Assembly (NCBI GenBank): GCA_964387845.1
Contig: CAYLXA010000001.1
Span: 290,627-354,626, forward strand
DNA: 64,000 nt
Direction: 5' to 3'
Source: an uncultured bacterium
GTDB taxonomy: Bacteria > Omnitrophota > Omnitrophia > Omnitrophales > Abzuiibacteriaceae
Part shown: positions 4,177 to 53,412 of the stretch, in pieces
Layout: each line of letters opens with the position of its first letter
How positions within the stretch are numbered: the first letter of the stretch is position 1
Position numbers and translations under genes: made by a program
The notes under the pieces: generated by a model
What the model was told of the DNA's origin: nothing
The model's database searches: none
Seen by the model: the letters and a program-made list of their open reading frames with translations, nothing else

Positions 4177-4195
4177 AGCCGGTATTATAACACTT

Positions 4196-7612: not shown

Positions 7613-7674
7613 TATGAATTCCTCCGTTATCGAATCCTTAAGCTACCTTACTAAGCCGCTTAGGAGCTTTATTG

Positions 7675-9511: not shown

Positions 9512-9574
9512 AGTTTTAAGTCGTAAGTGGTAAGGGCTAAGTTATTCGATCGCTTAACACTTACCACTTATCAC
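9512..9574. repeat. Heptad-repeat palindrome (NNTAAGT)n ... (ACTTANN)n, copy 1, directly abutting the mnmE start codon
   Basis: TTAAGT CGTAAGT GGTAAGG GCTAAGT ... ACTTACC ACTTATC ACTTATC. Same architecture at 43396-43478 and 47192-47276. Confidence 0.55.
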
Positions 9575-10903: not shown

Positions 10904-10915
10904 GGAAAGCGGGGT

Positions 10916-12478: not shown

Positions 12479-12493
12479 TTTTGTTTCCTAATT

Positions 12494-12584
12494 CCCTCTC
12501 CCTTTGGGAGAGGGCTAGGGTGAGGGATTTCTATAAATCCCACCACCCTCATCCTAACCTTCTCCCTCTAAAGAGGGAGAAGGG
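12494..12584. repeat. REP-like nested-hairpin element (family 1: CCCTCTCCC-N3/4-GGGAGAGGG plus GGGTGAGGG arms), copy 1
   Basis: CCCTCTCCCTTTGGGAGAGGG, GGGTGAGGGATTT..AAATCCCACCACCC, CTCCCTCTAAAGAGGGAG. It overlaps the last 9 codons (IPSPSLEGEG*) of the class IV aminotransferase gene. Confidence 0.6.
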
Positions 12585-13381
12585 ATAAATCGTTTCATTA
12601 ACCTGCTTGTTATAACGCCCGGAATTTCCGTGCCGATTTGACGGCCATCGAGCGACCGCACCGGCACGATGATACCTGTTGAATTGGTTAAAAAGGCTTC
12701 ATCCGCATTAAATACATCGTGACGCGTTAAGAAGGATTCTTCCGCCGAAATACCCAATTCGAGCGCATATTTTAACACAAAACGGCGGACGACTCCATTC
12801 AGGATTCCGGCTGTGGGAGGCGTTTTCAACGCGCCTTCCTTCACCATGAAGAAGTTCCAGACTCCGGCCTCGCGTACATACCCGTCTGGCCCCAGATAAA
12901 TCCGGTCAAACGAATCGGTACAATCTAAAAAAGCAAGCAGCCCATTGACCAGATCGCCTGATTTTGCTTCCGGCGGAACGCTGTTTGAGAGGTTGCGCCT
13001 CACAGCGGAAGTTTTAAGATCAACGCCTTCCCGATAAATCTTTTCGGGATAAGAGCGCACGGATACGATCGTGAAAATATTTTTCTCCGAAACAGCCAGA
13101 CGAATTGAATGGTTTGGATTTTCTTTGGCGATTTCGGCAAGTTCTTTTTCAATCCGTTCACGTTCGGTGGGAACTTCAATCCCTGAAGTTTTTGCGGATT
13201 CAAACAAACGGTCCAAATGTTCATTCAAATGCAGAATTTTACCGCTCCGGGATTGCATGGTTTCGAAAACGTTTAATCCAAGCTCCGCCGGCGATATTAT
13301 AGGAAGCTCTGCCGGTTTTATCTGTTTTCCGTTGATAAAGAGAAGCATATCCGTAAGTGACATGGGAAAAGTATAAAGCAA
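12554..13381 (-). CDS. Class IV aminotransferase family protein (PabC aminodeoxychorismate lyase / IlvE-like)
   Basis: 275 aa, fold-type IV PLP enzyme length. Its C-terminal 9 aa are encoded by the REP element. Lies 24 bp downstream of the giant ORF. Confidence 0.65.
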   Translation of the reverse strand: MLYTFPMSLTDMLLFINGKQIKPAELPIISPAELGLNVFETMQSRSGKILHLNEHLDRLFESAKTSGIEVPTERERIEKELAEIAKENPNHSIRLAVSEKNIFTIVSVRSYPEKIYREGVDLKTSAVRRNLSNSVPPEAKSGDLVNGLLAFLDCTDSFDRIYLGPDGYVREAGVWNFFMVKEGALKTPPTAGILNGVVRRFVLKYALELGISAEESFLTRHDVFNADEAFLTNSTGIIVPVRSLDGRQIGTEIPGVITSRLMKRFIPSPSLEGEG

Positions 13382-13404
13382 AAAAACAGGGCTGACTATT
13401 CGGA

Positions 13405-16400
13405 TTATGCGGAGTAGAAAACCTGCATTTGCGCGCGGAACTTGCCGACCAAATATGCCGCGGCTGATAATACATGGTCCACAAACGCTTGGTTCCAGAT
13501 TATGACCTTGTCTGCGATTTTTTCAAGAAATGGAACGGCAACCGCGTCATCTGAAACACCGATAATGGCCATGGAAAGACCGAGATTTCTAAGTTCGGCG
13601 CGCGCCTTGTGGTAATCCTCAACGGGAACAATCCTATTTTTTGGATTTGCAATGGTTGCATTAATCTCGTCGATGACGCGAAGCTCTGCGCGGTTTGTCA
13701 CGATCACCATGTAAGAACCGTAAACATCCGAAAGATTCCGGCCAACCACAGCCAGACTTCCCTTTTCGCCGAAGAAAGCGTTACGCGTAAACACTTTCCC
13801 TTCCCGCATCTCTGATCGATTTTGAAGTGCTGTAACAATCTGATTGTCAAAACTGCGAGCGTTTGACACAATCCGGCGCATTTCGCTTCTCGCTACCGGT
13901 GCAATCTCAGTTTGCAAATCTCGGAATAACGGATTTTCTTTGACTTCAACTCTTCCTTTAGCAATGGTTTTTTCAGTCTTTGCAATGACGCGGAAATTAA
14001 AAACTGTTTCACCCGAAACTTCGGACTGCACCTTGGCCATAATTAGCGGGAGCCCCAAAACTTCGCTTTGCACCTTGTCTCCGATTTCAGTATTATTGAA
14101 AGCATCTGCTTGATTTAGAATCGACTTTTCAATCGCGCTTTGAAAATCGATTGGTTTGATTTTTTGAAGGCTTTCCGGCAGCAATTCCTTGTTAATTTCG
14201 CCTTCCAAATGAATACTGACATCATAACGGCTTCCAATTGTCTTTTGAGCGATTGTAAAATTCCGGTGTTCGCTTGTTAGCGATTTGACGCCCGCCTGCT
14301 CATAAAATTGAGCATCAATAACGGGAACCTCGCGGTCTGCGATCTCTTCTAAAATCCGGACCGCGCGATGAATATATTTAGCGTGCCGGAAACTTCTTCG
14401 CTCATTTTCGCTCAGAGTCAAACTCCTGTTTTTCATCTGCAATTCCGAATACCAGCGCCGGAATAACTTCATAATTTGAATCAGCGAAAGCGGCTGGTTA
14501 GCGCCGAGCGGATTGGATGAATTTTGTTCGTAAATTCTATTAATATCTGTCTCGCTTTGAGCTGTCCAGCTTGATTTTTCCTGATTTAAAACCGCTTTAA
14601 GTACCGGAATATAAAAACCTGTGTCACGCTCAATCCACCAATTAAGCACATAAAGAGCGGCGAAGCGCGCAGATTGGCGCAGCATATCCGGATTAAAGTT
14701 TTTAGGCGCTACTTCAATGAGCGGTTTCCATTCATCAACCGGAATAACCGGTTCAGCTAAGTATTGAAGCAGTGTTTCGAGGCCAACCTCATTTCCTTTT
14801 CCAAGCTCATCGGCTCTTGTCTTCCGGATTGTAAAATTAGGATGCGACAAATTTCTAAGAAGTTTTTGCACCGAACGCAGTTCTGATTTTTGGCTGCCGG
14901 CATCAGGCCCAGGCATCGGCTCTGTCAATTTTTGGAAACGTTCGGCCAATTCGGTTTCTGAGATTTTAAACATTTCGTCAACAAACGCTTCGGAACCGCC
15001 AAGCTCCCCTCCGTCTTCTCCGAATAAACGGACTTCGACTAACTCATGAAACGCAACGGCAAATCTTTCGGCCGATATCCTTTCTTCATCCGTTTTGAAT
15101 TCAAACTGAAAAGCGAGACGCGTATCCTTAACCGCTTCAAGCGTCATCAAGGCCATCGGATTATCCGCTTCGATCCATTCAGCACTCCCTTTGTTCAGAT
15201 TTTTGATCTTAACAGAAACATTTTTTGCTAGGGCGGCTTGCGCCATTTCGACAATGAACATCGCTGGACTCGCATGGACACCTTGCCGGTTCTTGACCGT
15301 AACATTGATCTCAATGCTGTTACTTTCCCCTTCCCGCAATTCCGACATGTTTCTATCAGTCGGCGTTACGGACTTTTTATATTCATTAATCTGATGATCG
15401 AGAAAAGCTTCGTAACTATCAATGGCCTGGCTTGTTTGCGCCAACCACTCTTCTTCTTCTTTCAATAATAGGCCATGTTCTTCTTTCATTCCCTTCAAAG
15501 CAGACTTTGCTTTTCGAAGCTCTGGTAATATTCTGAGATAATAATCGTTCGCTTCCGCGGCTAGAGAATTGCCTCGATCCGAAACTGACAAAATAAAGCT
15601 GCTGAAACGATTCAACAAAACTTCCGTGCGGCTCAATAAAATCTTAATTCTGAGCTGCTGTTCATCCAAAGCGATTCGCCTCGGTTTGATAAGAGAATAA
15701 TAAAGGAGCGCTCCGACTCCTATGCCTATCGCGCCCGCTGAAATACCGATAACGGTATAATTTCGTAATTCAGAACGATGTTTAGGCGGACGGGGAAAAC
15801 TTTGAAAAGGCCCCCTGCGCGCAGCGCGGACAGCCTGAATTCTCGCCGTCACTTCTTCAATAGTATCTAAGTCACCGGCTAATTCTGCGTTATGAAGCTC
15901 GACTTCCAATCTTGCCAAATCCGTCGAGTGATGCGATTGGTCTACAGCAAACGGAAGCTCGATCGGCTCCTCATTTTCCAAATCATTGCGCAGTTCCGAA
16001 CGGACACCGGATTTTTCGCGAGGCGGCTGTTCAGATTTCGGCGGAACCGGGATCCATCCTTCCCACCGGCGGTAAACATGCGTAGGCCGCGTCCCTACTT
16101 CATTGGAAATATTTTTACCGCGCACGCCATGAACCTGATGGGCTTCATCACGCCGTAAAACTTCGGCTCTTTGTGCACGAAAATAATCATCCGTAAAATG
16201 AGTGATTTCGCCGGTTTTTAAGCCCGCGCGGCGCCAGTCAATGTGCCCTTCGGGATGAACAACACGCATATCTTTCTTCAGTACCTGCAAAGCTCCGGAA
16301 AATGCGGCGTGATTAAACAAAATAACTGTTTTCCCGCGATACTGCTCGTTCATGCGTTTCCAAAAAGCGGCGGCGCGGATGATTAAATGGGCAAAACTTT

Positions 16401-19400
16401 CGCCATGCTCAGGTTTCGCCAAAACACTCCACTTTTGATAACTTCGCGCGGCCTTGAATTGTTCCCGGCCAAACTGCGCCTTAATTTGCTCATTGGTGAG
16501 CCCTTCCCATTCGCCTTGAAAAATTTCTTTTGTATCGGGATCAATCATCACTTTCAGTTCAATTCCTAATTTTTCACGTACCAACCGGATAAATGGTTCT
16601 GCCGTATCCCGCACACGCCCAAGCGGATTAATGATCACCACAAACTGATCCGGATTTGCTGTGATTTGGTCTTTAAACTTTTCAAATAATTTTTCAGCGT
16701 CAGCTTGCGCTTGCACGCGCCCTTTTGGCGTCAACTGCGCGCCTTCGTTATCCATACCGCTTCCCTGAAACCTCTTTCTCCCTGTTCTTAGCCCTTCCGC
16801 AATGATGTGAGTTTCTCCGTGGCGGATAACGTAAAGATCCAGATCAAGCGCCGGTGGGAAATAAGGCTCTTTATAAAAAAGCTGCCCGGTCGATTGATTG
16901 ACCCAAAAACCCATTTGTTGCAATGTTTCGGAAACATTTTTTCGCAATTCCACCCTCGCCTTCATTAATAAATCCGGCTGTATTGCACTGGTCGGAACCA
17001 CAAGTTTGCCGTTTTCCCAATAGACCAGCGCACTCAAAAACTGGAACATGACCGGATCATGTTTTCTCACAAAATCAGGGTCAAGCCAGTAAAGAGACTG
17101 GGCTTCAAAGAAAAACTCTCGCGCAGAAACAATGCTGTATCGGCTCAAAAACTGCGTTTCAATTTCTTCTTGAGAATAATCAAGCACCTGCTTCTTTTTC
17201 CCAAATTGCCTTTCAAGTGCCTGCAGCCTAGTCTCATAAATCCGTTTTGCAATCTGATAAACTGCTGTTTTATCGTGTGGAATGTTCACAATAGAGAGTG
17301 GTAAATTTTTATTCGCAAAATGCTCTAAGCGCTCAAAGTTAATCGGCAGCGCATACTGATTATGCTCAACGAGCGTTTCCGCAAGTTCGTGAGTCAGGAG
17401 CCGTTCTAAATAAGTAAAGTCCTTATCCCTCACCTTCAAAAATTCATCGCTCACTGGCCCGTCATAGGAGATCGGATGATCGCCCGCATAAAGTGAAAGA
17501 AAGATCGATTTAACATTGGACAGCACAGGATGAAGGGAGTGATAGGTAACGCCTCCCAAATGATCTCCGTTGCGTCTTACGATAGAACGCGCAATAAATA
17601 CTTGGGCATTGAGCATTTTAAAAAGCGGTGCAATTGCAATGCCGGCCCTATGGCTTTCAAGGAAATGATTGAGCTGGCCATATAACTTACGCGCTAATCT
17701 CCAGTCGGTTTCACTGTTTAATCCATGCAATACATCAGTCCGAATATGTGCAGAAGAGCCTTGTAGATAACCCAAAACAATTTGACGCAATTCCGCCCTT
17801 GCCCCCTTTGAAGAAACATTTTCATGATCCGCTGGGGCCGAGGGGCTTTCTTGTAGTTCTTGCAAAATTAATATCACTTCGTCCGGAAGTCCTAATGCGC
17901 TTAAAGCATCCTTGGCGCTTTCGAGCTGATGAAAACTGAAATGATCCGCAAATCTTTCTGCGCGAGACTTATTTCCCAGCAACCCTGTCAAAAATGGGAT
18001 AGCCAACTCACGAAAATGAATGCACCATGGCTCCGCTTGAAGAATCCGGTTGGTCAGATAAAGCAGTTTTTTAAGCTGTTTAAACGATAAATCGCTATCT
18101 TGAAGCGCGGCACGGATTGCGTCATGGCCTGCATCCAACAACATAGTCTTAGGGGCAGCACTTTCCGCTTCGGAATTCCTGAGCTCGGAACGTATGGCTC
18201 TAGATTTAATAGCAACGCTGCCGAGATACACATTGCCGCTCTGGTGATAAAGAAGCGGGTTTTCGTGGCCATCCATGCTGATAACGTCTCCATCCGCGAT
18301 ATCACGGCCGGCGATGAGCCAAAGATGCTTTTCCGGCTGGAACACCATGTCCGGAACGCCATAAACGGCCGAAATGCCTTCTTTCTGCGCCAGCGTTTCC
18401 GCATGCACTGAAATGGTCTTCGCTAAAATATGAACCCCTTTTGGAATCCGGTTAATCATTTCGGGATTCACTCTGTCCAAGATCAAAATAACGCCGTCAA
18501 CATCCGCTCGGGGATGAGAAACAAGTTCGCCCAAAAGCTTTTCCGCTGCTTCTATCGAATTAGCCGCCAAACCGCGAATCGCACCGCCGCTCACGCCATG
18601 GCCGCGCGCAATCGGCTGATTGTCAGTCGAGTCGGCAAATTCCGGATATTGATCCGTCACAAAATCATCATTGCTTTGGACAATCCATATCTTTCCGCGC
18701 TCAATCGTGAATTCAAACTGCTGGTTGTAACGGAAAATGTTCTTGAGCTTACGCGCGTACTCGAACACTTGTGCGTAAAGCTCCGGCTGCAATGCTTCAA
18801 ATGTTTGTTCATCCGGCCGGATTCGCTCACCATTTCCGATTAAAATGTAATTTTGGCCGGCACGGCTCATCAATTGATCGCCGATCGAGTGAAACCGAAA
18901 TTTACCTTGGAGCACGTCATGGCCGTCCGGAAGTGTTCTCAAAACTGCGTGCCCCGCGCCTGAAATTTTCCCGTCATCAGTCGGCTTTAAATTTCCGAAA
19001 ACGCCTTTCTGCAGAATAACGACCGTTCCCCACTCTTGCGAAATCTGATGCCGTGTACGATACGCGCGTGCCTCTTCGGAGTCCCACGATGCATAAACCG
19101 CTTCGACTGCCATCATGACCTGATCCATCATGTCGTTTGGAATTATTTTGCCGTGCCGCGCCACGATTGCTTTGCACTGTTCCACCACTGCCTTCATGCC
19201 GTCTGCCGACAAATCTTCCTTTTCTTTAACATTCAAAACCTGCTCAAATTCCGCCTCAGGAATACCGAGCACATTGATCGAAAATGACCGGATAAATTCC
19301 GCGTAGGTGTCATACGCAAACCACGCATCGCCGCTTTTTTGGGCAAGCGCTTCGGCTTCCGCGTCGTTCATGCCCACATTCGACACAGTAGCCAAAAGGC

Positions 19401-22400: not shown

Positions 22401-25400
22401 CGCCATACTTCAGTGAGAATATTTTTACGCCCAGATCTGTGGATCTGTAACCAAACTTCCAATCATGAACGTCTTGATCCAGCATGACCGATAAGGCCCA
22501 TAGCATCAAATTTCGATACGTGAAACCCGGATAAGACTGCGAGAATTTTCGTGTAGACGGCGGTATATCGGCCAAACGTTCTTCGGGCCATGCCGATACA
22601 ACACTAATGAACCGCTTGACATAATCGGCCAGCAGCTCGTTGTCCGAGGGTTTCTTGATTTCTTTCCCGTCAAATTCCTCAATATGAAGACCGGTCGGAC
22701 GCAGATGTATGACTTGCGTCAAGCCCAATGTCCAGTAAGCGTAAAATAAATCCTCTAAACCACCCGCAAGCAGATGATCCAGACGGCCTGCAAATTTTTC
22801 AAATTCGTCCAGGTCTTTGAAATAGGGATCGATTAACGTTGCCAAAAATTGGTTGAGGTTGCCGAATTTCTTGTCAAGGCCCCGGTTTTCCCATTCCCGG
22901 CGCAATTCGACGCCGAGCTCGCGTAATTCCCTATTCGAAAATCCTTCGGGCAATACCTTGCTCCAATAAATGCGCCTGTCCTCTGAGCCGCTTCTGGGCC
23001 AAAACCGATTGGAGTCGTGCGGGCTCAATAGAAACGTCAGAGCTTCAAGGATATCGCCTTCCGTCAGACTGTCATAAATCTTATTCGGAGAGCCCGCTTG
23101 ATCCATCAAATCGCGAATCACATCCATAACTTGATCGACTTTTGAACGTTGGGTGACCGCGGCAGTTTGCCTAAGTTCCGAACGGTTTTTCAGAATTTGC
23201 CGCCGTTCTTCGAGCGTAAAAAATTGTTTTTCGTAAGCTCTTTTTGCGGCTTCCCGGATTTTTCTATTAAACCGGTCTAAATCAGTTATTTCCTTCTTTA
23301 AAAAATCAAGCCACTGTTTTGGTTCAATGGTCATTTCCCCGAAAAATTCGTCGCTCAAAAGCATCAACAGCTGCACAAATGCGACTTTGTACAAAGGATC
23401 TTCCTGATCCAAGGCAGCCCGCATCGCATCTGATACCGGAAGTACCGGATTCAGATAAGGGAACAGGATTTGAGCCGGATAGGACGACCGGATTAATTCA
23501 TTCAATTTAGCTTCTACTTCAAAGTAAGCATGGGCCAACAACCCCTGCTGATCGCCTTCATACCCGCCCAGCGCATGAGCCAGCAAACTTCCGGGACGCA
23601 GGATAGCTTTCATCACATTAATCCAATAGAGCGATGTTGAGTAATCGTTTTCTCCCTTATAAAATTCGTTTGCAAACACATAGGCATCGGAATGGCTAAG
23701 TTCCTCCTCTAAAACTCCGCTCCGGTATAATTGTGCGACATACCCATAATCGCCCAAACTATAAAAATGCATTTGAATCCAATCTCGTAAGTAAGCGACG
23801 GGTGATTGATCAAAATTGGGAAATTGATACTGGCCCGTTTCATATAACTTTTTCAAATTTTGGTAATAATCAAAATTTTCTATCGAAGGAACGTCGGTGC
23901 CTTCAATAATGACAATATGCCTGTCTTTCGCAAATGCACTTAGGTAACTGTCGCTCTTTCCGTCTCTCGATTTGAGGCGAACGGTGTAAACCGGAACAAA
24001 CCGGCCTGCCGCAGAGCGCTGAGATTCCCTTTTGATAATTTTACCGACCAAGAGTCCGCTGCCGTTCACTATGTCCACGATCAGGCCACGTGGAATTAAA
24101 ATATCGTCCGCGATTTTTGTTCCTATTTTTCCGATATCATAAATAGAAATCAAATCTTTGTGGCCAAATGAAAAAGCGGCATCAAAATCCGGTGAAAGAG
24201 GCCTGAGAACCTGGTTGAATGTTTCAACGGCCTCAAGACGGTTTAAGTCATTTAGACTGGCTTTTTCGACTAGGTACTTTAGCTTCGGCCAATAGCTCAC
24301 CCAAAACCATTCCACAACATCAAAGCTGGGGCTATCCGGATTTAGGAGCCTAAACTCTCTGATTAAGTTGAGAATTTGATTCGCCTGGCTGGTGTTGAGC
24401 GTGATCTTTCCGCGCAAAGCTTTGATAATGCCTTGCGCATTTAAATTTTGAGTTTCCAAAAATTCTTTCAGAACATCTACGGTAAAAAAGCGTTTAATAT
24501 TTTTTACGCTTAATTTCGAAATGATGAGAGCATGCAGCGTTTGAACCGGATCCGTATTTACTGCTTGTGCCGTCTGATTGCGCAATTCAGAGCGGAGTAG
24601 CTCAGACTGCGGGGCAGCGGTTTGACCTTGCAACGGGATTTCCCAGAAATTGCGGGCGTTGCGGGCAGAATCGAAGAATGCTCTGGCTTTCGCACGGTTG
24701 CCTTTGGTTAACTCGAATAATCCAAAAATAATTGCGTAAGCTCTTTCCGTAAAGCTACGCGACTTTTTTAGCACAAAGTCACGGGCCAGCCACCGGTAAC
24801 GGAATGCGTCAAAATGATACTGAAAACCGGCTTCCGGATCGTGAATCTTTTTAATTGTATTGCGCGAGGCTCCCTGAGAGTAGTGCTGATCTAAATAATC
24901 GCGGCCGTAGTTGGTAATCCCTGCATAGATCTTCTTAAAGCCCGAACGCCGCGCGACATCTTGAAGAATCTGAATCGCTTCCGGCATCAGTTCATCGAAA
25001 TATTTTGCACCGTCATTGTTAAACTCGAAACTGTTGACCGTTAGTACCGGATCTCCATTGTCTTCCGATGCAATCATCCACATCTGTGCCCGATGCTGAT
25101 AGGCATCGCCTGAACCCTTGTGATCGATGTCCGCCAGGATAATTCCGTCGTCACTCAGGAGAGAGGGCAAAATCCAGGAGACAAAATGCTGCAGAGAAAT
25201 ACAATTTCCGATGGCTTCACTTGAAGTGAGAAAATCTATCGCGCCTTTCAGGGTCTTTTTGTCGTGAATTCTTATTCGAATTCCCTTTTCTTTATTTTCG
25301 TAAACCCTGCCCTTCTCAAATTCAGAAACATTGATGCCGATTGCCTGCATTTTTTTCTCAATGGCTGAAACATGGCCTGTTTTGCGAAGTCTTTCTGACA

Positions 25401-28400
25401 AATAATCACGCAATCTTTTGTAATACAAAATTCCGGGCGCAATATTGAGCCGCGTGCTGATCAAAAAAGTTCCTGGCGCGATAATTCCCATCAAAATAAA
25501 AAACAAGGCAGCATTTGAAATGAGAGGATAAATGGTAAAAACGCCGAACCCGACCAGAAACGCGAAAGCGGTCGGCGCCACCCAAGCATAAATGGGCCTT
25601 GGCGGCTTTCTAAGGCCTTTCAAAATGCGTGGATTCATCGTGACAATGTCGAGAGCATCTGCAATGCTGATCCCGAGTGCGCGCCGCACTTTGGCAATTT
25701 CGGAAATTTTCATGCGGCTCAGGCGCGTGGCTTTCATAAATTTCTGAACCGCCATGAGTTTGTCAAAAGCGTCTTTTTTAAGACTGTCCCGCACCGCTTT
25801 GTCTTCGGAAAGCCTGCGCATAGCTTCTTGATTTGAGGCTGACCAGACTACGGCAATAACTTCTTCCGTTTTTTTCCGCTGGTCAGGCGAAAGTTTATCC
25901 AAAAACTTAAGCACATTGACGAGATCGCCGTCTTTAACGGACACGTTGTACAGAATTTCTTCAAAAAAGTACCGCAAATTCCGGTTTGGACTTGGAAAAT
26001 ATTCGAGCAACTTTTCAAGTTTCGCGATTGCGCGCGGAGGATAGCTCATTTTCTGCGCAACGGGATTTTCATTAATTTCAGCGAGAATGGTTTCGATAAA
26101 TTTTGGATATGCGCGGAGCTCGGATCGCTGCTCATCGGTTTTTTTTGCGATTGCCCTCCTTTCAGACTTATGCTGAAACCACCACATTCCTCCAAAAAGA
26201 AGCAGAAGCGGCGGGATCAAGGAAGCATTGTCCGTAAGCCAGGCAACGGGCCCGGTCACAACAAGAACAAGCGAGGCTGTAATTGCCTTAAGAAAATATT
26301 GTTTCCGGAACTTAAACCACCACGTTTTATACTGAGTCGGAAAAATCTTAACGCGGTTCGATGGTTGAATTAAATCCGTTACATAACCAATCACTTCACC
26401 TTTTGGGAAAGCATACTCCAAAGGCTCGACCGGATACCCATAAACGTCTAAATATTGTTTTTGGGAAGGATCGGCATATTCGATCGATACAAGCTCGGGC
26501 TGTTTGCCGGATTTCTTAACATAATCGACAAGCCTCTTAGGCCCTTGATTGAGCGGATAAGCAAAATAAAGAACTGATTTAAATCCGCATGCCCGGGCAT
26601 AGTTCTCGATGATTTTTTGAATTCCCTTCGCCTTTGCATCAAAAATTCGCCCCTCCACACCGTCCACAAATAAAATCGGCTGTTCTTTTCCGTCTTGATC
26701 CTTATAAATCGCGGCGGCGATTCTGGCCCGTACCCGGCGGCCTTCGCGCGTACGGAAATCAATCGCTGAAATACTTTTGTTGTGCAAATAATTAAACGGG
26801 CCCAGCGCACCTTTTGTTCTCCGGTTTAATTTGTCAAGCCACGTGTTGCCGCGAAGCGACGCCGAAGAAAAGAAATCCTTTTGATTGGTTAAATCAAACC
26901 ACGGATCGCGCCGCCAAATCCGGGCTTCTACAATTGAGTCCGGTAAATTTCCCCAATCGTCAATCTTGGAGATACTTTTCTGAAGGTATTGATTGGCCTT
27001 CGCGGCATTGGGGTTTACATATTGGCCCAGCTCTTGCAGCAACTTTTTTCCTTCCTCGACAGGCAATTCACCTCTTTTATTCCTGGCCAATTCTTCTTTG
27101 TGCGCATTGAAAAATTGAGTGACCGACTTCTTACCCTCCTTTAAATTGGGCGTGTACTGTCCGGGCTTAAACTGGCGGTCTTCGGTTGAACCCAAAAAAT
27201 CCCTGAGTATTTTCTGGATAAACTCGGGGATGGTTTGATTTTCCGCGTCTTCGAATTCCCCTGCCGGTACTTTTTCAATATTATCCCCGCGAATTTGATA
27301 ATAGACTTTGTAATCCGGATTATCCCAATTTTCGTTGATGCCGACCGATTTGAGACGCTCCATGGTTTGAATCGCTGCCTCGGTCTGGTCAAACCATTGC
27401 CGGTAACTTCGCCGCTTAAGCATGGAGGCCAGATCCAACGCGGAAATTGTTTTCCACGAAAAAATGAACATTCGTTTCGCAAATACCGCCAAAATGTAAA
27501 CCAAGGCTGTGAAACCTGACGCCACAAACAAGCTTTCAATCCATCCTGCGGGATCAGAATTGTTGATCATTTCCCTAATATTTAAGCTTGCTAAATTTCC
27601 ATCCATCCAAAAAGAAATAGCGGAATAGAAAATTGTGAGCGCTGCGCGTTGAACCGAAGCATAGAAATATCCAATAACGCCAGTGAAGGAAACCGCGAGA
27701 AGATGCAGCCACGGGTTCTGAATGAGCGCCGTACGGGCGTGCGCAATCCGTGCGCGTTCTAATTTTTCTTCGTTAATTTTGTTCAAGTCAATCTTTAAAC
27801 TTTTAAACTTTTTCCACAAAAATTTCAGCTCCGGGAAACCGTCTTTCTCCATCCGCTCGTCGATTTCGGCAATGGTGAGATCTGAATTCTCACGCAGTTC
27901 ACTGGCTGCCTTTGGATTTTTGCTTTTTCCGTTTCCGGAAAAAGCGTTGCGCGTCAGAACACCGATCGTTTTAAACACCAGCGCGGTGTTATAAAGTGCC
28001 GACCGGTCCCGGATATCGTTTAACTCCAGCTCTATGTCATGCGTGTCCATGCCAAACTTTCCGGTTCCGATACCCCGCTTTAGAGCGCTTGAGCTGAGAA
28101 AACCCGGCTTGGTGTGATGTAAAACACTTTCGATATAATTTTGATCAACTTCCAAAGGTAAGCGCGGCCTTGGCCCAAACCATTGCATGTCACCGCGGAC
28201 AATCGACAAGAGCTGCGGAAGCTCATCAAGCCCCGTTCTGCGCAAAAACCATTCGTAAGGCGTAATGCTTTCATCTGAAATGTTGAAATCAAGTTTCATG
28301 GTTTTAATTTTTCGTATCACAATCGTCTTGCCCTGAAAACCGATTCGCTCTTGAATAAAAAACATGGGGCCGCTTGTGATAATTTTCCGGATAAAGGCAA

Positions 28401-31332
28401 GCAAATAAACCAGCGGAAGAGTTAAAACCCACAAAACGAGCGCTGTGATTCTCCCTGCCGCCTCGGACAGATCAGGTTTCTTTGCCGCGGGAAGCGATAA
28501 AGCATTGGTTTCCTTCAAGCGCAATTCCGAGCGCGCTTTATCGATGTCGTTCGATTGAGAAGCCGAAGTCGGTATTTCTCCGGTTGGGTGATTGCTGCTT
28601 ACCGCATTTGCTTTTCCTTTTGAATGCAAATAAAAGGTGCCGACGGCGGATGTTAAATGTCCCAATCCGGCCAGAAGCACAACCTCGTTTGAATCTTTTC
28701 TGGATCCAAGATACGCGGTTTCTGCCATAAAAGATCCTCTGTCTTTTGCTTTGTCGTTGGGATGTGTCAAATAATCAGGGGCGAATAACTGGTGCGACTC
28801 GATAGATTTCAACCATTTGGTAAAAAGCAGAATGAGAGAAACCACAAGAAACCACGGTGCAAAAAATGCAGCTATTAAACTATCCCGAAGCGAATCCCCA
28901 TGATCAAATATTTCACTGCCAACCTGCAATTTGTAAAGCAGGCGAAAATTTCGCTCGTGAAAAAATGGGATGCCTTCTCTCGCTAAGAAATAAGATAACT
29001 CCCGTACTTTTTTCTTGTTTAGCAGCATAAATTCAGAACCATGCACAATGCCAATCACATGAAAAGTACGCCCGCCGATTTTGACCATCTTACCGGAAAA
29101 ACCAAAGCGTTCCGCAATCGGCGAATCTTGAAATTGCGCCATGGTTTCAGAAGCCGCCTTTCGCCAAATTGGAGTAGCGAAGTCTGAAAATACTCGGCGG
29201 TGATAACCGATATTTTTGCCTAAAAGACCGGCTTTTTTAAATTTCTGAAACAATTCGATGGGTTTTGATGATTCAATCATCCAAGTTCCGATAGTCCTTT
29301 CTGAAATTTTTAATTCACCCGCTCGATCCCAAAATTGTTTCTCAGACGGGTAACGTAAAACATTGATCAATAGCGGGAGGATAAACTTTTGAACAAAATC
29401 AGCGTAGGTAAAATTGAAACTTAAGAGAACCACATTCGCCAAAAGCCACGTGATAAAAATACTAATGGGAAAGCCAAACCGTGAAAGACTTAGCTGCATA
29501 AGTGCCTGTTTAATGCTTGATAAAAAATGAGCTGCGAGTGGATAGGTTTTGGGGAATAGAAGCATTAAAATCAAGGATCCCGACATTGCGGCTATCCCGT
29601 AAAATAAAAATGGAATAGCTTTCATCCCGATTTTTAATAGATGCTTCCGCTTTGCATCCGGGCTCCCGTTCTTGAGTCTAGATTCAGCATGAATGACATC
29701 CCCGGTTACCCGCAATTCCGACCGAGGCGCGGTTGGCGACAAGTGCAATTCCGAGCGCGGCTCTGCGCTTGCGGCAAACTCGTCAGGAATGACCGGCGAT
29801 TCCAATAAGATATCCGATACATAATCGGCAGCAGTGCGGCGAACAACCGGGTCGGAATCACCAGCAGCAATAGCCATAACGGAAACAGCGCGCCAGTCGT
29901 GGTGGCGCGTTTGGTACAAGTAATCAAGTAAATTCAGAAGTTTGATTTTAAATTTTTGGAGATGCGGGTTTGGGGTGCTTGATCCCGATTGAAGTTCCAG
30001 AGCTTCTGAAAATGTGGCAAACAAAATATCGGGCGATACTTCATACAAAGAAAATTTTGAGTCGTAAGCCAGCAAATGTTCAATTCGGTCGATGATTGCA
30101 AAATTTCCACTTTGATATGCATTATAGAAATTGATCATGATTTGGCCCGCAACAATTCGCTGAACTAATTTTGAAACTTCCCCGCCCGTTACTTTAAAAT
30201 AATATTTTTTTCTGGCTTTGAGCCCATCCAATTCGAATAACTCCCGCAGATTTTCTTCCACTTCCCTCTTGATTCTTTCAAATTCTATCCTTTTTTCAGA
30301 AAGAACATCTTCGAGCGGTTTTTGAGCGGCTTCCAAATTTTCCGTGGCTGGTATTTTCAGCTTTGGTTCTTTTTGGCCGGGCTGAGTAGAAAACTGAGAA
30401 CACCCGACCGAAGCTAGTCCGATTAAAGAGAACAACTGAATCAATTTCAATATTTTGAATGCGCGCAGCTCTGAGGATTGAGATATTTTTGTGTAAACTT
30501 GAAAACTGGAGGAGCTATCCGGATGGATCTTGACTGTAACGCGTGAAAAATCGGGAGATGAAAAATAAGGCATCAATTCATGCTCAACGCCATAGTTGAC
30601 CAATTTTCCGCCGGCTTTGAGATTTCTTTTGATCGTACTGGCTAGCCGCGCACGATTAGCTGTGCCATAACTATAATAATAGACAATATCAGCTTGCTGC
30701 AAAAGCGCGGTCCAGCGCGTGTCATTAAAATCTCCGCGCAAAAATTCTACTTGGCCTTTTTTGATAATCCCGCGCTCCTCGGCCACAGAAAGTAACCGGA
30801 GACTGTCTGCGTAGAGATCCGGATCATATTCGATGCCGGTGATTTTTAAATTCGGATAACGGTGAGCAAGCATCAATGCATAAGCGCCCTGGCCATGGCC
30901 CAAGTCCACCATGGTAACCGGCTGGTCATGCGGGATCGGAAATTTTTCGACCGTTGCATTTATCGAATCAAGCCGGGTCTGTAGGTGAACGCCTTTTTCC
31001 GTGCGCCGGAGCTGAGCTGAGCTAAAATCAACTCCGGAATTTCGGAACAAAAGGCCGAGCACTTCCCTTGGATCCCTGGCCAATTCGACTGCTCGCAATT
31101 CCGAGCGCGGCTGAGTGTTTAATTTAACTGTGCCGCGGGCGATGGTGGGTAAATCCAGATCCAGAATACCGCCATGCTGATTGGCTAAGCGATGGACTCC
31201 GACGGTGGTGAAATTATTTTTGAAGGATTCCGCGATCACAGACGAATCGCCGTAAGCGATCGTGCTGGTAACTGAAAAGGTAAGGACAAGTGTCAGAGCA
31301 ACACTTTTTAAAAGATATGAGTTTAACTTCAC
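13405..31332 (-). CDS. Giant 5975-aa multi-module protein. In order: signal peptide, SAM-dependent methyltransferase, lipoprotein-like signal, TM-rich regions, PglC/WbaP-type bacterial sugar transferase, PPDK/PEP-synthase-like ATP-grasp plus phosphohistidine module, histidine phosphatase (RHG), HPr-like domain. Modules are separated by recurring RSELR motifs.
   Basis: One uninterrupted 17,928-nt ORF, GTG start at 31332, N-terminus MKLNSYLLKSVALTLVLTFSVTSTIAYG. MTase motif I MVDLGHGQGAYAL ... LRGDF. Sugar transferase SGPMFFIQERIGFQGKTIVIRKIKTM ... DELPQLLSIVRGDMQWFGPRP. PPDK_N-like RSGSAFMLPGLLATVSNVGMND and mobile-His region GHGVSGGAIRG ... TISVHAETLAQKEG. Histidine phosphatase LYVIRHGETH ... 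EIFQGEWEG. HPr-like NRQGVHASPAMFIVEMA. Confidence 0.7.
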   Translation of the reverse strand: MKLNSYLLKSVALTLVLTFSVTSTIAYGDSSVIAESFKNNFTTVGVHRLANQHGGILDLDLPTIARGTVKLNTQPRSELRAVELARDPREVLGLLFRNSGVDFSSAQLRRTEKGVHLQTRLDSINATVEKFPIPHDQPVTMVDLGHGQGAYALMLAHRYPNLKITGIEYDPDLYADSLRLLSVAEERGIIKKGQVEFLRGDFNDTRWTALLQQADIVYYYSYGTANRARLASTIKRNLKAGGKLVNYGVEHELMPYFSSPDFSRVTVKIHPDSSSSFQVYTKISQSSELRAFKILKLIQLFSLIGLASVGCSQFSTQPGQKEPKLKIPATENLEAAQKPLEDVLSEKRIEFERIKREVEENLRELFELDGLKARKKYYFKVTGGEVSKLVQRIVAGQIMINFYNAYQSGNFAIIDRIEHLLAYDSKFSLYEVSPDILFATFSEALELQSGSSTPNPHLQKFKIKLLNLLDYLYQTRHHDWRAVSVMAIAAGDSDPVVRRTAADYVSDILLESPVIPDEFAASAEPRSELHLSPTAPRSELRVTGDVIHAESRLKNGSPDAKRKHLLKIGMKAIPFLFYGIAAMSGSLILMLLFPKTYPLAAHFLSSIKQALMQLSLSRFGFPISIFITWLLANVVLLSFNFTYADFVQKFILPLLINVLRYPSEKQFWDRAGELKISERTIGTWMIESSKPIELFQKFKKAGLLGKNIGYHRRVFSDFATPIWRKAASETMAQFQDSPIAERFGFSGKMVKIGGRTFHVIGIVHGSEFMLLNKKKVRELSYFLAREGIPFFHERNFRLLYKLQVGSEIFDHGDSLRDSLIAAFFAPWFLVVSLILLFTKWLKSIESHQLFAPDYLTHPNDKAKDRGSFMAETAYLGSRKDSNEVVLLAGLGHLTSAVGTFYLHSKGKANAVSSNHPTGEIPTSASQSNDIDKARSELRLKETNALSLPAAKKPDLSEAAGRITALVLWVLTLPLVYLLAFIRKIITSGPMFFIQERIGFQGKTIVIRKIKTMKLDFNISDESITPYEWFLRRTGLDELPQLLSIVRGDMQWFGPRPRLPLEVDQNYIESVLHHTKPGFLSSSALKRGIGTGKFGMDTHDIELELNDIRDRSALYNTALVFKTIGVLTRNAFSGNGKSKNPKAASELRENSDLTIAEIDERMEKDGFPELKFLWKKFKSLKIDLNKINEEKLERARIAHARTALIQNPWLHLLAVSFTGVIGYFYASVQRAALTIFYSAISFWMDGNLASLNIREMINNSDPAGWIESLFVASGFTALVYILAVFAKRMFIFSWKTISALDLASMLKRRSYRQWFDQTEAAIQTMERLKSVGINENWDNPDYKVYYQIRGDNIEKVPAGEFEDAENQTIPEFIQKILRDFLGSTEDRQFKPGQYTPNLKEGKKSVTQFFNAHKEELARNKRGELPVEEGKKLLQELGQYVNPNAAKANQYLQKSISKIDDWGNLPDSIVEARIWRRDPWFDLTNQKDFFSSASLRGNTWLDKLNRRTKGALGPFNYLHNKSISAIDFRTREGRRVRARIAAAIYKDQDGKEQPILFVDGVEGRIFDAKAKGIQKIIENYARACGFKSVLYFAYPLNQGPKRLVDYVKKSGKQPELVSIEYADPSQKQYLDVYGYPVEPLEYAFPKGEVIGYVTDLIQPSNRVKIFPTQYKTWWFKFRKQYFLKAITASLVLVVTGPVAWLTDNASLIPPLLLLFGGMWWFQHKSERRAIAKKTDEQRSELRAYPKFIETILAEINENPVAQKMSYPPRAIAKLEKLLEYFPSPNRNLRYFFEEILYNVSVKDGDLVNVLKFLDKLSPDQRKKTEEVIAVVWSASNQEAMRRLSEDKAVRDSLKKDAFDKLMAVQKFMKATRLSRMKISEIAKVRRALGISIADALDIVTMNPRILKGLRKPPRPIYAWVAPTAFAFLVGFGVFTIYPLISNAALFFILMGIIAPGTFLISTRLNIAPGILYYKRLRDYLSERLRKTGHVSAIEKKMQAIGINVSEFEKGRVYENKEKGIRIRIHDKKTLKGAIDFLTSSEAIGNCISLQHFVSWILPSLLSDDGIILADIDHKGSGDAYQHRAQMWMIASEDNGDPVLTVNSFEFNNDGAKYFDELMPEAIQILQDVARRSGFKKIYAGITNYGRDYLDQHYSQGASRNTIKKIHDPEAGFQYHFDAFRYRWLARDFVLKKSRSFTERAYAIIFGLFELTKGNRAKARAFFDSARNARNFWEIPLQGQTAAPQSELLRSELRNQTAQAVNTDPVQTLHALIISKLSVKNIKRFFTVDVLKEFLETQNLNAQGIIKALRGKITLNTSQANQILNLIREFRLLNPDSPSFDVVEWFWVSYWPKLKYLVEKASLNDLNRLEAVETFNQVLRPLSPDFDAAFSFGHKDLISIYDIGKIGTKIADDILIPRGLIVDIVNGSGLLVGKIIKRESQRSAAGRFVPVYTVRLKSRDGKSDSYLSAFAKDRHIVIIEGTDVPSIENFDYYQNLKKLYETGQYQFPNFDQSPVAYLRDWIQMHFYSLGDYGYVAQLYRSGVLEEELSHSDAYVFANEFYKGENDYSTSLYWINVMKAILRPGSLLAHALGGYEGDQQGLLAHAYFEVEAKLNELIRSSYPAQILFPYLNPVLPVSDAMRAALDQEDPLYKVAFVQLLMLLSDEFFGEMTIEPKQWLDFLKKEITDLDRFNRKIREAAKRAYEKQFFTLEERRQILKNRSELRQTAAVTQRSKVDQVMDVIRDLMDQAGSPNKIYDSLTEGDILEALTFLLSPHDSNRFWPRSGSEDRRIYWSKVLPEGFSNRELRELGVELRREWENRGLDKKFGNLNQFLATLIDPYFKDLDEFEKFAGRLDHLLAGGLEDLFYAYWTLGLTQVIHLRPTGLHIEEFDGKEIKKPSDNELLADYVKRFISVVSAWPEERLADIPPSTRKFSQSYPGFTYRNLMLWALSVMLDQDVHDWKFGYRSTDLGVKIFSLKYGARFWPDDTKRRTGKQSMTEYLSRMLTDVPELDQNGVETGRKISNEKIEKLVAEVLSRNESDWVRLGFRSPWDVSEVQASMLIRTIGDRSKNPLRDAVLTLPLPNLQDPELNVGINTSAPVYLKYAPLPRHLIFPTQAAFIHRRKEAVRRRLFFGEPFRTLFPNLKTLTAQKRSELRSDGRTNPMSYKEFEKALRDYQTLMKLSFGRGGKHLSFEQNQAVGARKEAIIDLLKKNSKEHLQNLIREFILKADLPLDKKQSYLWYVSSAMSPDRYRMTDAFFKEHLIPIYLSKTNSPEENRIFLELAAAYFNEHYIKADIHHDLEATFRQASPDDLGKLIHLLLHLRTIGHEFFRELISILLSVSPADPLAAAFVAAQGLVRDIPSEGRKRIEYPQMSLYLLHQPNARAAYFYLMKVIEAERKGGVSTDNSQDRIISYSRRLDNNASYPGEFGRGWFSHFRDGIHRNLNRSDFENTRRVLAYWLTLDESILKESNWTLLRDDMTKDFNPATLQTYSKLLNRFVKALAAKGKISKSDPEAFLDEILDIPEREVVAIYEEANRDEDVSEIDYERVQLMTQLYLAFADHFGTRVATIVPFLKGETEDLRDGGYLKKKMTAITRFMREDYDRLLMLIDSDDHAAIFSAIVKVQNDLKEFLLSGEENQKKVLGQAEKSIGRDGEDSADEDADDIDQEWNDMHEEGDYLYDLRTLVEMSEKLSILASEKIAHVQEKIEKINSVDDLRRELPNLIALGRFIQASGLGGVDFDQLMVELDSGSIKASQLYDLVHTLEAEVHKITRQLNNTMRAAMQYSLDEVGYHDLAKLWREHTSLFKIKTKTEDDQTYQIYDFPPEGKERLEAAVIDELIRNSGATAFDRALMKFDAVLASALSQGQDEAIREDAGAERPDDFEQHLYRFGENETDERPELLSLWSKKGLNLIRMTHERIPVPPGVILSAKLVTKPDIFRSDEFRQKIAAEIERLKRYSEYPDLKLILYARSGSAFMLPGLLATVSNVGMNDAEAEALAQKSGDAWFAYDTYAEFIRSFSINVLGIPEAEFEQVLNVKEKEDLSADGMKAVVEQCKAIVARHGKIIPNDMMDQVMMAVEAVYASWDSEEARAYRTRHQISQEWGTVVILQKGVFGNLKPTDDGKISGAGHAVLRTLPDGHDVLQGKFRFHSIGDQLMSRAGQNYILIGNGERIRPDEQTFEALQPELYAQVFEYARKLKNIFRYNQQFEFTIERGKIWIVQSNDDFVTDQYPEFADSTDNQPIARGHGVSGGAIRGLAANSIEAAEKLLGELVSHPRADVDGVILILDRVNPEMINRIPKGVHILAKTISVHAETLAQKEGISAVYGVPDMVFQPEKHLWLIAGRDIADGDVISMDGHENPLLYHQSGNVYLGSVAIKSRAIRSELRNSEAESAAPKTMLLDAGHDAIRAALQDSDLSFKQLKKLLYLTNRILQAEPWCIHFRELAIPFLTGLLGNKSRAERFADHFSFHQLESAKDALSALGLPDEVILILQELQESPSAPADHENVSSKGARAELRQIVLGYLQGSSAHIRTDVLHGLNSETDWRLARKLYGQLNHFLESHRAGIAIAPLFKMLNAQVFIARSIVRRNGDHLGGVTYHSLHPVLSNVKSIFLSLYAGDHPISYDGPVSDEFLKVRDKDFTYLERLLTHELAETLVEHNQYALPINFERLEHFANKNLPLSIVNIPHDKTAVYQIAKRIYETRLQALERQFGKKKQVLDYSQEEIETQFLSRYSIVSAREFFFEAQSLYWLDPDFVRKHDPVMFQFLSALVYWENGKLVVPTSAIQPDLLMKARVELRKNVSETLQQMGFWVNQSTGQLFYKEPYFPPALDLDLYVIRHGETHIIAEGLRTGRKRFQGSGMDNEGAQLTPKGRVQAQADAEKLFEKFKDQITANPDQFVVIINPLGRVRDTAEPFIRLVREKLGIELKVMIDPDTKEIFQGEWEGLTNEQIKAQFGREQFKAARSYQKWSVLAKPEHGESFAHLIIRAAAFWKRMNEQYRGKTVILFNHAAFSGALQVLKKDMRVVHPEGHIDWRRAGLKTGEITHFTDDYFRAQRAEVLRRDEAHQVHGVRGKNISNEVGTRPTHVYRRWEGWIPVPPKSEQPPREKSGVRSELRNDLENEEPIELPFAVDQSHHSTDLARLEVELHNAELAGDLDTIEEVTARIQAVRAARRGPFQSFPRPPKHRSELRNYTVIGISAGAIGIGVGALLYYSLIKPRRIALDEQQLRIKILLSRTEVLLNRFSSFILSVSDRGNSLAAEANDYYLRILPELRKAKSALKGMKEEHGLLLKEEEEWLAQTSQAIDSYEAFLDHQINEYKKSVTPTDRNMSELREGESNSIEINVTVKNRQGVHASPAMFIVEMAQAALAKNVSVKIKNLNKGSAEWIEADNPMALMTLEAVKDTRLAFQFEFKTDEERISAERFAVAFHELVEVRLFGEDGGELGGSEAFVDEMFKISETELAERFQKLTEPMPGPDAGSQKSELRSVQKLLRNLSHPNFTIRKTRADELGKGNEVGLETLLQYLAEPVIPVDEWKPLIEVAPKNFNPDMLRQSARFAALYVLNWWIERDTGFYIPVLKAVLNQEKSSWTAQSETDINRIYEQNSSNPLGANQPLSLIQIMKLFRRWYSELQMKNRSLTLSENERRSFRHAKYIHRAVRILEEIADREVPVIDAQFYEQAGVKSLTSEHRNFTIAQKTIGSRYDVSIHLEGEINKELLPESLQKIKPIDFQSAIEKSILNQADAFNNTEIGDKVQSEVLGLPLIMAKVQSEVSGETVFNFRVIAKTEKTIAKGRVEVKENPLFRDLQTEIAPVARSEMRRIVSNARSFDNQIVTALQNRSEMREGKVFTRNAFFGEKGSLAVVGRNLSDVYGSYMVIVTNRAELRVIDEINATIANPKNRIVPVEDYHKARAELRNLGLSMAIIGVSDDAVAVPFLEKIADKVIIWNQAFVDHVLSAAAYLVGKFRAQMQVFYSA

Positions 31333-31458
31333 AGTTTGAGCGAGCTGCCTTTCAAAATCGGGAATGGATAGATAATATCACAGATAAACTGATTTTCAAG
31401 TATAAGAGGGTTTTAATATAAAATAAGAAGATATATATAGAACTAATAAGTTCTATTA

Positions 31459-53409: not shown

Positions 53410-53412
53410 TAT

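Follow-up and report, generated by a model that had tools for sequence, protein, structure and literature searches.

We analysed a 64,000-nucleotide stretch of DNA from an uncultured bacterium (contig CAYLXA010000001.1, positions 290,627 to 354,626; hereafter the window), in which a giant open reading frame (ORF) on the minus strand (13405..31332) encodes a protein of 5975 amino acids (aa). This ORF appears to be a single gene of the 'beads-on-a-string' multi-enzyme type, composed of approximately 18 autonomous modules of stand-alone size. A recurrent pentapeptide linker, R-S-E-L-R with its close variants, is present in 21 copies at the module junctions. The first-pass annotation of this DNA missed the linker, which is the key feature of the ORF. 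To judge from its sequence conservation, the linker is probably read by a specific factor. That the chain may be cut proteolytically at the linkers is a proposal whose chances we regard as about even.

The linker variants are SSELR, ASELR, KSELR, MSELR, RAELR, RVELR, RSEMR and RSELH. In the giant ORF, SELR was observed 14 times versus 0.21 expected (maximum of 3 in 500 shuffles) and the complete RSELR 10 times versus 0.02 expected, and no copy of the linker motif is present in the ∼15,300 aa of the window's other long ORFs. Because 20 of the 21 copies are encoded by distinct 15-mers and all codon families of Arg, Ser and Leu are used, it is the peptide that is conserved, not a DNA or RNA element. 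The information content is limited to the five linker residues, of which position 4 accepts L, M, V or I, and the flanks are enriched in P, T, N, Q, S and G and depleted in W, C, Y, F and H.

It is practically certain that the giant ORF is real. The ORF list and the translation gave 5975 codons without an internal stop, as the first-pass annotation had stated, and the full-length protein (designated P0001; other P-numbers denote related proteins) is recorded at NCBI on a 409-kb contig. When the assembly was re-checked, a Logan contig of run SRR15237813, which was built by another assembler from reads possibly identical to those of the source, was found to match window positions 916..22478 (21,563 bp) without gaps and with 100% identity. 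This contig takes in 9,074 nt of the giant ORF, its last 9 kb, with an identical open frame, and the gene call on it is a protein of 3,627 aa that runs off the contig end. The GC content of the ORF (0.461) and that of its third codon positions (GC3, 0.475) are both similar to those of the adjoining housekeeping genes. The host is probably a divergent member of Omnitrophota, a placement that rests on one protein, the phosphoenolpyruvate (PEP) carboxylase of the window, whose best named matches are from Candidatus (Ca.) Omnitrophica (53-55% identity).

Cut at the linkers, the giant ORF yields ∼18 modules of 70-1227 aa, and each recognised enzyme lies within one module with near full-length profile coverage. 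A segment-wise hidden Markov model search (Pfam and NCBIfam) detected four of the activities that had been proposed from sequence reading: an S-adenosylmethionine (SAM) methyltransferase (Methyltransf_25, aa 142-242), a PglC-type sugar transferase (Bac_transf, aa 962-1126, profile positions 7-177 of 179, E 1e-27, inside a 204-aa module), a branch-1 histidine phosphatase (His_Phos_1, aa ∼4832-5014, E 2e-20) and an HPr-like domain (PTS-HPr and TIGR01003, aa ∼5340-5415), whose profile begins 6 aa past a linker. The proposed PPDK/PEP-synthase-like module without its TIM barrel was also confirmed. An N-terminal ATP-grasp region (aa ∼3883-4221) matches PPDK_N in Pfam and positions 2-334 of the 865 in TIGR01828 (E 1e-62). 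Since the latter match ends there, no PEP/pyruvate-binding TIM barrel was found in this module (module 10), which ends at a linker ∼25 aa past a weak PEP-utilizers swivel domain (aa ∼4279-4357, E 0.014, under the cut-off).

For approximately 60% of the protein, neither Pfam nor NCBIfam gave a match. No condensation, adenylation or ketosynthase domain of non-ribosomal peptide synthetases (NRPS) or polyketide synthases (PKS) was found in the giant ORF by Pfam, nor were internal repeats by BLAST, which agrees with the earlier view that it is not a repetitive giant with a single fold. The predicted N-terminal signal peptide corresponds to a hydrophobic signal-like segment at aa 7-25. A second such segment was found at aa 291-309, where a lipoprotein-like signal had been proposed, but its 'lipobox' (A-S-V-G-C) is imperfect. 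In four modules, a hydrophobic signal or anchor opens the module 9-45 aa past the linker (linker at aa 286, transmembrane (TM) segment at 299; 537 and 583; 934 and 970; 5186 and 5200). Speculatively, the cargo points to phosphotransfer-coupled glycoconjugate or envelope chemistry, because it includes the phosphoglycosyl transferase, the methyltransferase, the PPDK-like ATP-grasp with its swivel, the HPr-like carrier and the histidine phosphatase.

A search with residues 1-5000 of P0001 yielded only four weak relatives, all of them giants with heterogeneous Pfam content; P0003 is from an Omnitrophota metagenome-assembled genome (MAG) and P0005 from an Elusimicrobiota MAG. A further relative, P0006, is also an Omnitrophota MAG protein. 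No close relative of the whole ORF and no orthologue with split modules were found in scans of GTDB genomes and JGI metagenomes. The four relatives share an N-terminal domain of about 500-550 aa behind a signal peptide. This head domain has the TIKI/TraB fold (motif QD[AV]H ... E ... R ... GGxH) with a helical insertion of ∼200 aa, and it is matched by neither Pfam nor NCBIfam; the fold of the TIKI/TraB/PrgY/ChaN/erythromycin-esterase superfamily is common to the relatives' head domain and not to the window ORF. Among 1.84 billion proteins, the head-domain profile (A1) matched 9,567 cluster representatives at E <= 1e-3 and 6,191 at E <= 1e-30; the matched proteins are 436 to 7,700 aa long and all carry the domain N-terminally. 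A scan of GTDB genomes with a degenerate DNA pattern of the head domain (the signature) detected at least 118 loci; among the matches listed, all are close to where a long ORF begins and nearly all are from Omnitrophota or Elusimicrobiota MAGs, often with several per genome. The invariant residues D72-x-H74, E102 and H399, whose H, E and H occur in all 56 members compared, match the 2His/2Glu catalytic set of the superfamily, including the 28-residue His-to-Glu spacing, as represented by H3902/E3930 of RRSP and H85/E113 of Bcr135 (PMC6254334). The head domain therefore looks like an active hydrolase.

Linkers were compared in 154 family proteins, the best-scoring slice of the 9,567; many family members end at contig ends. 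Two main dialects were distinguished, class A (R[SA]E[LMVIA]R; 224 copies versus 7.4 expected) and class B ([GASQR][ASQR]SLG; 161 versus 19.8). Of the 104 proteins that reach 1500 aa or more, 22 contain only class A (at least three copies and essentially no class B), 18 show the reverse, and none contains both. The RSELR-type motif occurs 12 times in P0004, 17 times in P0031 and 20 times in P0101; P0002 carries RSE[MV]R, and the RSE[LMV]R dialect is also found in P0013, P0064, P0098, P0124, P0129, P0152 and P0155, among others. P0003 contains G-A-S-L-G and its variants in ∼15 copies; by eye, one RSELR ('LNLGRSELRIKF') was also seen near the C-terminus of this class-B protein. Further dialects are RAETR, GARMA/GARLA (GAR[ML]A) and xARLA (L067, L096, L108 and L071), and L064 and L091 have ordinary tandem low-complexity repeats (KEIP and IPKAE) instead. 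All dialects have a small residue (A or S) at position 2 and an aliphatic one or Thr at position 4. Within a genome, paralogues use one class among the matches listed: four of four are class A in Ca. Taenariivivens baikalensis (Omnitrophota), two of two class B in Omnitrophota OFTM55 and two of two class A in C24. Similarly, the tandem neighbour of P0002 uses the RSEVR of P0002 itself. We are highly confident that this punctuated modular architecture is common to the giant ORF and the family.

The linkers also mark the boundaries of whole proteins. When 37 class A or B proteins were cut at their linkers, the internal modules had a median length of 306 aa (interquartile range, 142-555), with the head domain as the sole universal module and extremely diverse cargo. 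Of the 95 high-scoring segment pairs (HSPs) between the cargos of different proteins, 16% cross a linker, versus 65% (minimum 45%) with randomised linkers, and 29% begin at matching offsets (<=10 aa) past the preceding linker of each partner, versus 2% (maximum 7%) at random. P0001 cargo (the methyltransferase, the sugar transferase, the PPDK-like module and one orphan) matches linker-bounded modules in seven members. The methyltransferase module between the linkers at aa 76 and 286 matches P0004 between 2983 and 3191 and P0031 between 4314 and 4518, and the orphan module between 2717 and 3149 matches P0090 from exactly the linker of the latter. In each of its four carriers (P0001, P0002, P0020 and P0059), the PPDK-like module has a linker at its end, and the sugar transferase begins 11 aa past RSELR in P0001 and 13 aa past ASLG in its P0003 homologue. 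None of the 78 linkers in six proteins lies inside a Pfam domain (9.8 expected, P < 0.0002), and two-domain enzymes, namely hexokinase_1 plus hexokinase_2 and the GT5 plus GT1 of glycogen synthase, remain undivided in one module. Family-wide, 25 of 62 TM-like segments are located in the first 80 aa past a linker versus ∼10 expected (∼2.5-fold); enrichment in the first 40-residue bin alone was not significant, and a strict pattern detected no lipobox-type signals past linkers family-wide. Two of the features expected of a processed polyprotein, several complete proteins in one ORF and a short conserved sequence at their junctions, were thus observed.

We propose that the pentapeptide would be the recognition site for a genome-specific, trans-acting factor that co-evolves with it, because the core is constant while the modules share <30% identity, because this core is exchanged in its entirety between lineages and because it is uniform within each genome. 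The most likely factor would be a site-specific endopeptidase acting on the chain co-translationally or shortly afterwards, and the released products would then follow their own signals to be exported, inserted into the membrane or retained in the cytoplasm. Such endoproteolytic release is the most economical interpretation, since the sites part whole proteins, several of the products carry their own N-terminal targeting signals, and in an uncut chain a Sec signal would precede enzymes that depend on SAM or ATP. Cleavage at the linkers would also resolve the topological paradox pointed out in the first-pass annotation, that cytoplasmic catalytic domains sit behind secretion signals. Of the interpretations offered there, the processed polyprotein is now the leading one, through the conserved linker found at module boundaries across the family, with cleavage as its conjectural part. 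That P0001 keeps its linkers without a head domain argues for a reader acting in trans. The broader idea of a 'protein operon' system in Omnitrophota, in which giants are cut at a genome-specific code (RSE[LMV]R, xxSLG, RAETR or GAR[ML]A) by a dedicated endopeptidase, is put forward tentatively, as falling a little short of an even chance; if it holds, the headless window ORF that keeps the code would show that the reader acts in trans.

Several points weigh against cleavage, which we infer from sequence patterns. No protease domain was found in the giant ORF or the window (Pfam and NCBIfam), and no protease or secretion genes are present beside the giant ORF or beside its relatives. The TIKI-fold head domain of the relatives is a candidate for the linker protease, but hmmsearch with the domain profile did not detect it in P0001 or any ORF of the window, and the first linker of P0001 is preceded only by the signal-like peptide and ∼50 aa. 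No positions discriminating the head domains of class A from those of class B were found, identity within a class being barely above that between classes, and its location behind a signal peptide puts the domain across the membrane from cytoplasmic linkers. For these two reasons, we do not claim the head domain as the linker reader. At the C-terminus of the giant ORF (aa 5815-5975, 13408-13890), four degenerate copies (RSEMR, RSEMR, RAELR and RAELR) are 24-42 residues apart, which is too close to separate proteins. Furthermore, 64 of the 104 proteins of at least 1500 aa (∼60%) contain neither linker class, none of the 16 Elusimicrobia-labelled loci with an ORF of at least 1000 aa among the matches listed contains class A or B, so that the punctuation does not extend to every member, and the dialect patterns were set after inspection of the data.

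The rival that survives best is an uncleaved mega-enzyme or scaffold, in which the chain stays intact and membrane-anchored and the motif serves in chaperone or insertase docking, in Ser modification or as a folding hinge. We consider it somewhat unlikely. It would explain why no protease was found, and a 2026 preprint treats such proteins as single membrane-anchored molecules with a signal peptide and TM segments (bioRxiv 10.64898/2026.06.07.730766). The TM segments scattered along the chain could lead it back and forth across the membrane, tethering could benefit the phosphotransfer functions (PPDK-like, HPr-like and histidine phosphatase), and Ser, as a modifiable residue, shows the highest conservation among the small residues of both main dialects. 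However, a passive linker normally varies in sequence and has low complexity, whereas here an invariant charged pentapeptide lies between modules of <30% identity. In addition, a Sec signal ahead of SAM- and ATP-dependent enzymes and internal signal-like segments past linkers are hard to fit to one chain. The modules are shuffled as linker-bounded units without conserved order, which also disfavours an ordered assembly line.

It is improbable that the protein is a secreted multi-effector like the MARTX toxins, delivered to prey or host cells and cut at its linkers once inside, with the enzyme modules as effectors in the target cytoplasm. The housekeeping-like cargo (the phosphoglycosyl transferase with its own helix, HPr, hexokinase and glycogen synthase) looks unlike toxins, Pfam detected no RTX repeats, C80 protease or C39 domain in the giant ORF, type I secretion genes were not found nearby, and the gene lies in a core-genome context of native composition. 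Some features nevertheless recall MARTX toxins. Their protease domain cleaves after Leu, and position 4 is aliphatic in both main linker dialects; type I secretion signals are C-terminal, where the conserved x-Ala tail is located. The head domain has the fold of RRSP, the MARTX effector endopeptidase, the modules are shuffled between proteins, and Omnitrophota have been proposed in the literature to be predatory or host-dependent.

Protease-free production of several proteins, either by internal initiation past the linkers or by 2A-like ribosomal skipping, is very improbable. A short conserved junction peptide offers a general analogy to 2A, but in-frame ATG codons past linkers number 11 versus 11.4 at random, none of them with a Shine-Dalgarno (SD)-like sequence, the codons under the motif vary freely without an RNA signal, and the motif accepts L, M, V or I at position 4. 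We know of no 2A-like activity of bacterial ribosomes. Finally, an artefact (mis-assembly or sequencing error) or a decaying row of genes with lost stops is scarcely credible, even though the DNA comes from a MAG and scans of reference genomes and JGI metagenomes gave nothing closely related to the entire ORF, since the second assembler reproduced the last 9 kb with 100% identity in the same frame, 5975 stop-free codons at 46% GC are beyond chance and hundreds of relatives have the same architecture. The 'gene train' considered in the first-pass annotation is therefore rejected: its junctions are a conserved, selected pentapeptide and not decayed intergenic DNA, with no remnants of stops, spacers or starts and no excess of starts or SD sequences after them.

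Giant proteins concatenating many enzymes have been described in Omnitrophota (bioRxiv 10.1101/2023.11.21.568195; 10.64898/2026.06.07.730766), so that the statement in the first-pass annotation that bacteria were not known to have them is outdated. The giant ORF is a small, headless and atypical member of these giants. It resembles the 'multi-enzyme metabolic cluster' giants in that a long ORF is tiled with unrelated enzyme Pfam domains and has a signal peptide and scattered TM helices. The kinds of Pfam domains are shared (methyltransferases, sugar enzymes, kinases and phosphotransferases) and the phylum is probably the same, but the window ORF is small, at 6 thousand amino acids (kaa) versus 10-147 kaa. 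West-Roberts et al. (2023) suspect cleavage of these giants and state that the cleavage points are unknown, which blocks further analysis (bioRxiv 10.1101/2023.11.21.568195). The recurrent linker, its dialects, the TIKI/TraB-fold head and the x-Ala C-terminus are not mentioned in either preprint or in the other literature found, and nothing relevant to 'RSELR' or a bacterial polyprotein strategy was found in the literature. The linker punctuation code thus appears to be new.

Among other systems, viral polyproteins, such as those processed by picornavirus 3C or potyvirus NIa, are similar in that complete proteins, both membrane and soluble, arise from one ORF with a short recognition peptide at each junction and a lineage-specific site consensus that co-varies with the genome. 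They differ from the window ORF, which is cellular and chromosomal, contains no protease in the chain, carries metabolic or envelope cargo and has cleavage as a prediction. MARTX toxins share exchangeable modules, unstructured linkers with an aliphatic residue and, through RRSP, the TIKI fold of the family head, but in the window ORF and beside it there are neither RTX repeats nor a C80 domain nor type I secretion genes, and its cargo is housekeeping-like. AROM, CAD and PKS/NRPS proteins also combine many catalytic units in a chain. However, they are ordered pathways with a fixed domain order and no invariant punctuation peptide, whereas module order is not conserved and functions are unrelated in the window ORF.

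For the question whether Omnitrophota giants work whole or cut, the pentapeptides supply candidate cleavage points in hundreds of proteins. The linkers also allow giants to be split computationally into modules tractable for structure prediction, the predicted neo-termini are searchable in existing metaproteomes, and the linkers suit a simple reporter assay. If cleavage is true, cellular prokaryotes would have their first general polyprotein strategy, with which proteins could be co-expressed at fixed stoichiometry by a route other than operons, and the system would be a source of orthogonal protease/site pairs. Should cleavage be refuted, the motif would still point to a recognition system conserved in a family of >9,500 cluster representatives. 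The features of the giant ORF are listed in Table 1.

Table 1. Giant ORF of the window with its modules, linkers and promoter candidate
Feature	Position in protein	Window coordinates	Strand	Description
Giant ORF (P0001 at NCBI)		13405..31332	minus	GTG start at 31332, stop codon 13405-13407
Module 1	aa 1-75	31108..31332	minus	Sec-type signal-like peptide (aa 7-25) + ~50 aa
Linker 1	aa 76	31093..31107	minus	RSELR
Module 2	aa 81-285	30478..31092	minus	Class I SAM methyltransferase (Methyltransf_25); equally bounded homologues in P0004 and P0031
Linker 2	aa 286	30463..30477	minus	SSELR
Module 3	aa 291-525	29758..30462	minus	Signal/lipoprotein-like hydrophobic start, remainder orphan
Linker 3 (double)	aa 526 + aa 537	29710..29757	minus	RSELH + RSELR
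Module 4	aa 542-933	28534..29709	minus	Orphan membrane protein, 3 TM-like segments
Linker 4	aa 934	28519..28533	minus	RSELR
Module 5	aa 939-1142	27907..28518	minus	PglC/WbaP-type phosphoglycosyl transferase (Bac_transf), N-terminal membrane helix
Linker 5	aa 1143	27892..27906	minus	ASELR
Module 6	aa 1148-1735	26128..27891	minus	Orphan; TM-like segments ~1267-1292, 1681-1699
Linker 6	aa 1736	26113..26127	minus	RSELR
Module 7	aa 1741-2241	24610..26112	minus	Orphan; two TM-like segments ~1914-1959
Linker 7 (double)	aa 2242 + aa 2247	24580..24609	minus	QSELL + RSELR
Module 8	aa 2252-2716	23185..24579	minus	Soluble orphan
Linker 8	aa 2717	23170..23184	minus	RSELR
Module 9	aa 2722-3148	21889..23169	minus	Orphan; P0090 homologue begins at P0090 linker
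Linker 9	aa 3149	21874..21888	minus	RSELR
Module 10	aa 3154-4380	18193..21873	minus	~730-aa orphan region, PPDK-type ATP-grasp, weak phosphohistidine swivel
Linker 10	aa 4381	18178..18192	minus	RSELR
Module 11	aa 4386-4511	17800..18177	minus	Small orphan
Linker 11	aa 4512	17785..17799	minus	RAELR
Module 12	aa 4517-4792	16957..17784	minus	Orphan
Linker 12	aa 4793	16942..16956	minus	RVELR
Module 13	aa 4798-5110	16003..16941	minus	Histidine phosphatase, branch 1 (His_Phos_1)
Linker 13	aa 5111	15988..16002	minus	RSELR
Module 14	aa 5116-5185	15778..15987	minus	70-aa acidic/helical peptide
Linker 14	aa 5186	15763..15777	minus	RSELR
Module 15	aa 5191-5328	15349..15762	minus	N-terminal TM anchor 9 aa past linker, then helical region
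Linker 15	aa 5329	15334..15348	minus	MSELR
Module 16	aa 5334-5481	14890..15333	minus	HPr-like phosphocarrier (PTS-HPr, TIGR01003)
Linker 16	aa 5482	14875..14889	minus	KSELR
Module 17	aa 5487-5814	13891..14874	minus	Orphan
Linker 17	aa 5815	13876..13890	minus	RSEMR
Module 18	aa 5820-5975	13408..13875	minus	C-terminal region with three further degenerate linker copies
Degenerate copy	aa 5839	13804..13818	minus	RSEMR
Degenerate copy	aa 5881	13678..13692	minus	RAELR
Degenerate copy	aa 5911	13588..13602	minus	RAELR
Sigma-70-like promoter candidate		31372..31399	minus	TTGAAA-16-TG-TATTAT, ~40 nt upstream of start; 10/12, extended -10, consensus match only

Module 4 was considered as an embedded TraB/TIKI-like protease, of which the pattern GIVHGSE...HERN...DRGSFMAE...AGLGHLTS is reminiscent by eye. 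This assignment was unsupported: the module has no Pfam, NCBIfam or PDB sequence match and no homologue in 5.8 billion proteins, its single-sequence AlphaFold model was unusable (predicted local distance difference test score, pLDDT, of 46), and a comparison with the head domain of the family by hhalign was negative. The idea of a C-terminal module conserved throughout the family was likewise rejected, since only the terminal x-Ala is common and the C-termini form separate sub-families, that of P0001 being a singleton. Approximately 100 of the 154 members end in Ala, and the P0001 terminus, ...QVFYSA, fits the family-typical ending of x-Ala behind an amphipathic stretch, a weak sign of membership given its singleton C-terminus. 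Position -1 of the linkers, which was compared with the C-terminal x-Ala as a guide to the scissile bond, is only weakly small (A 20%, S 16%).

Two family genes lie in tandem on the P0002 contig (L121 15885-18623, Logan DRR438491), and the gene after P0002 has a head domain (E 1e-61) and an RSEVR at aa 574. In L078 (Omnitrophota ZLKRG04), two head-domain signatures on opposite strands, 5755-5793(-) and 6587-6625(+), lie within 1 kb of each other and suggest a pair of family genes with divergent transcription. By eye, the last module of P0005 contains an HEGYH (HExxH-like) motif.

The giant ORF is separated from its neighbours by 126 bp upstream and 23 bp downstream (127 and 24 bp in the first-pass annotation). 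These neighbours encode a chorismate-binding enzyme (31459-32952) and a class-IV aminotransferase. Their designation as pabB-like and pabC-like is plausible, with FolC, which exceeds its cut-off, two genes further downstream after PurH. However, the TrpE, PabB, BCAT and PabC models are all under their curated cut-offs for the flanks (397 versus 409 for PabB-clade2), so that neither gene reaches that of PabB or PabC. No terminator-like site was found in the 23-bp downstream gap by consensus matching. The notion of a co-transcribed cassette inserted between pabB and pabC is weak, given the GC and GC3 similar to the neighbours, the ORF's own promoter-like site and the sub-cut-off identities of the flanks. 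An 8-nt overlap (32945-32952) between the DUF1015 gene (32945-34261) and the start of the chorismate-binding gene suggests translational coupling.

Elsewhere in the window, an ORF6N-domain gene (36752-37291) and a HEPN AbiU2 gene (37445-38113) are adjacent on the minus strand (36752-38113) and represent a possible abortive-infection or mobile island amid housekeeping genes. A 753-aa ORF without Pfam or NCBIfam match (58273-60534, minus), partly overlapped by a 260-aa ORF (60371-61153), adjoins ResB/CcsA cytochrome c maturation genes (54628-58172) and a NapC/NirT-type cytochrome gene (61287-62777). Essentially all substantial ORFs of the window are on the minus strand except that for myo-inositol-1-phosphate synthase (35362-36471), and GC skew is negative throughout. 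AT skew reaches +0.16 to +0.19 at 52001-56000, over genes for membrane proteins (Na/Ca and Na/H exchangers and CcsA).

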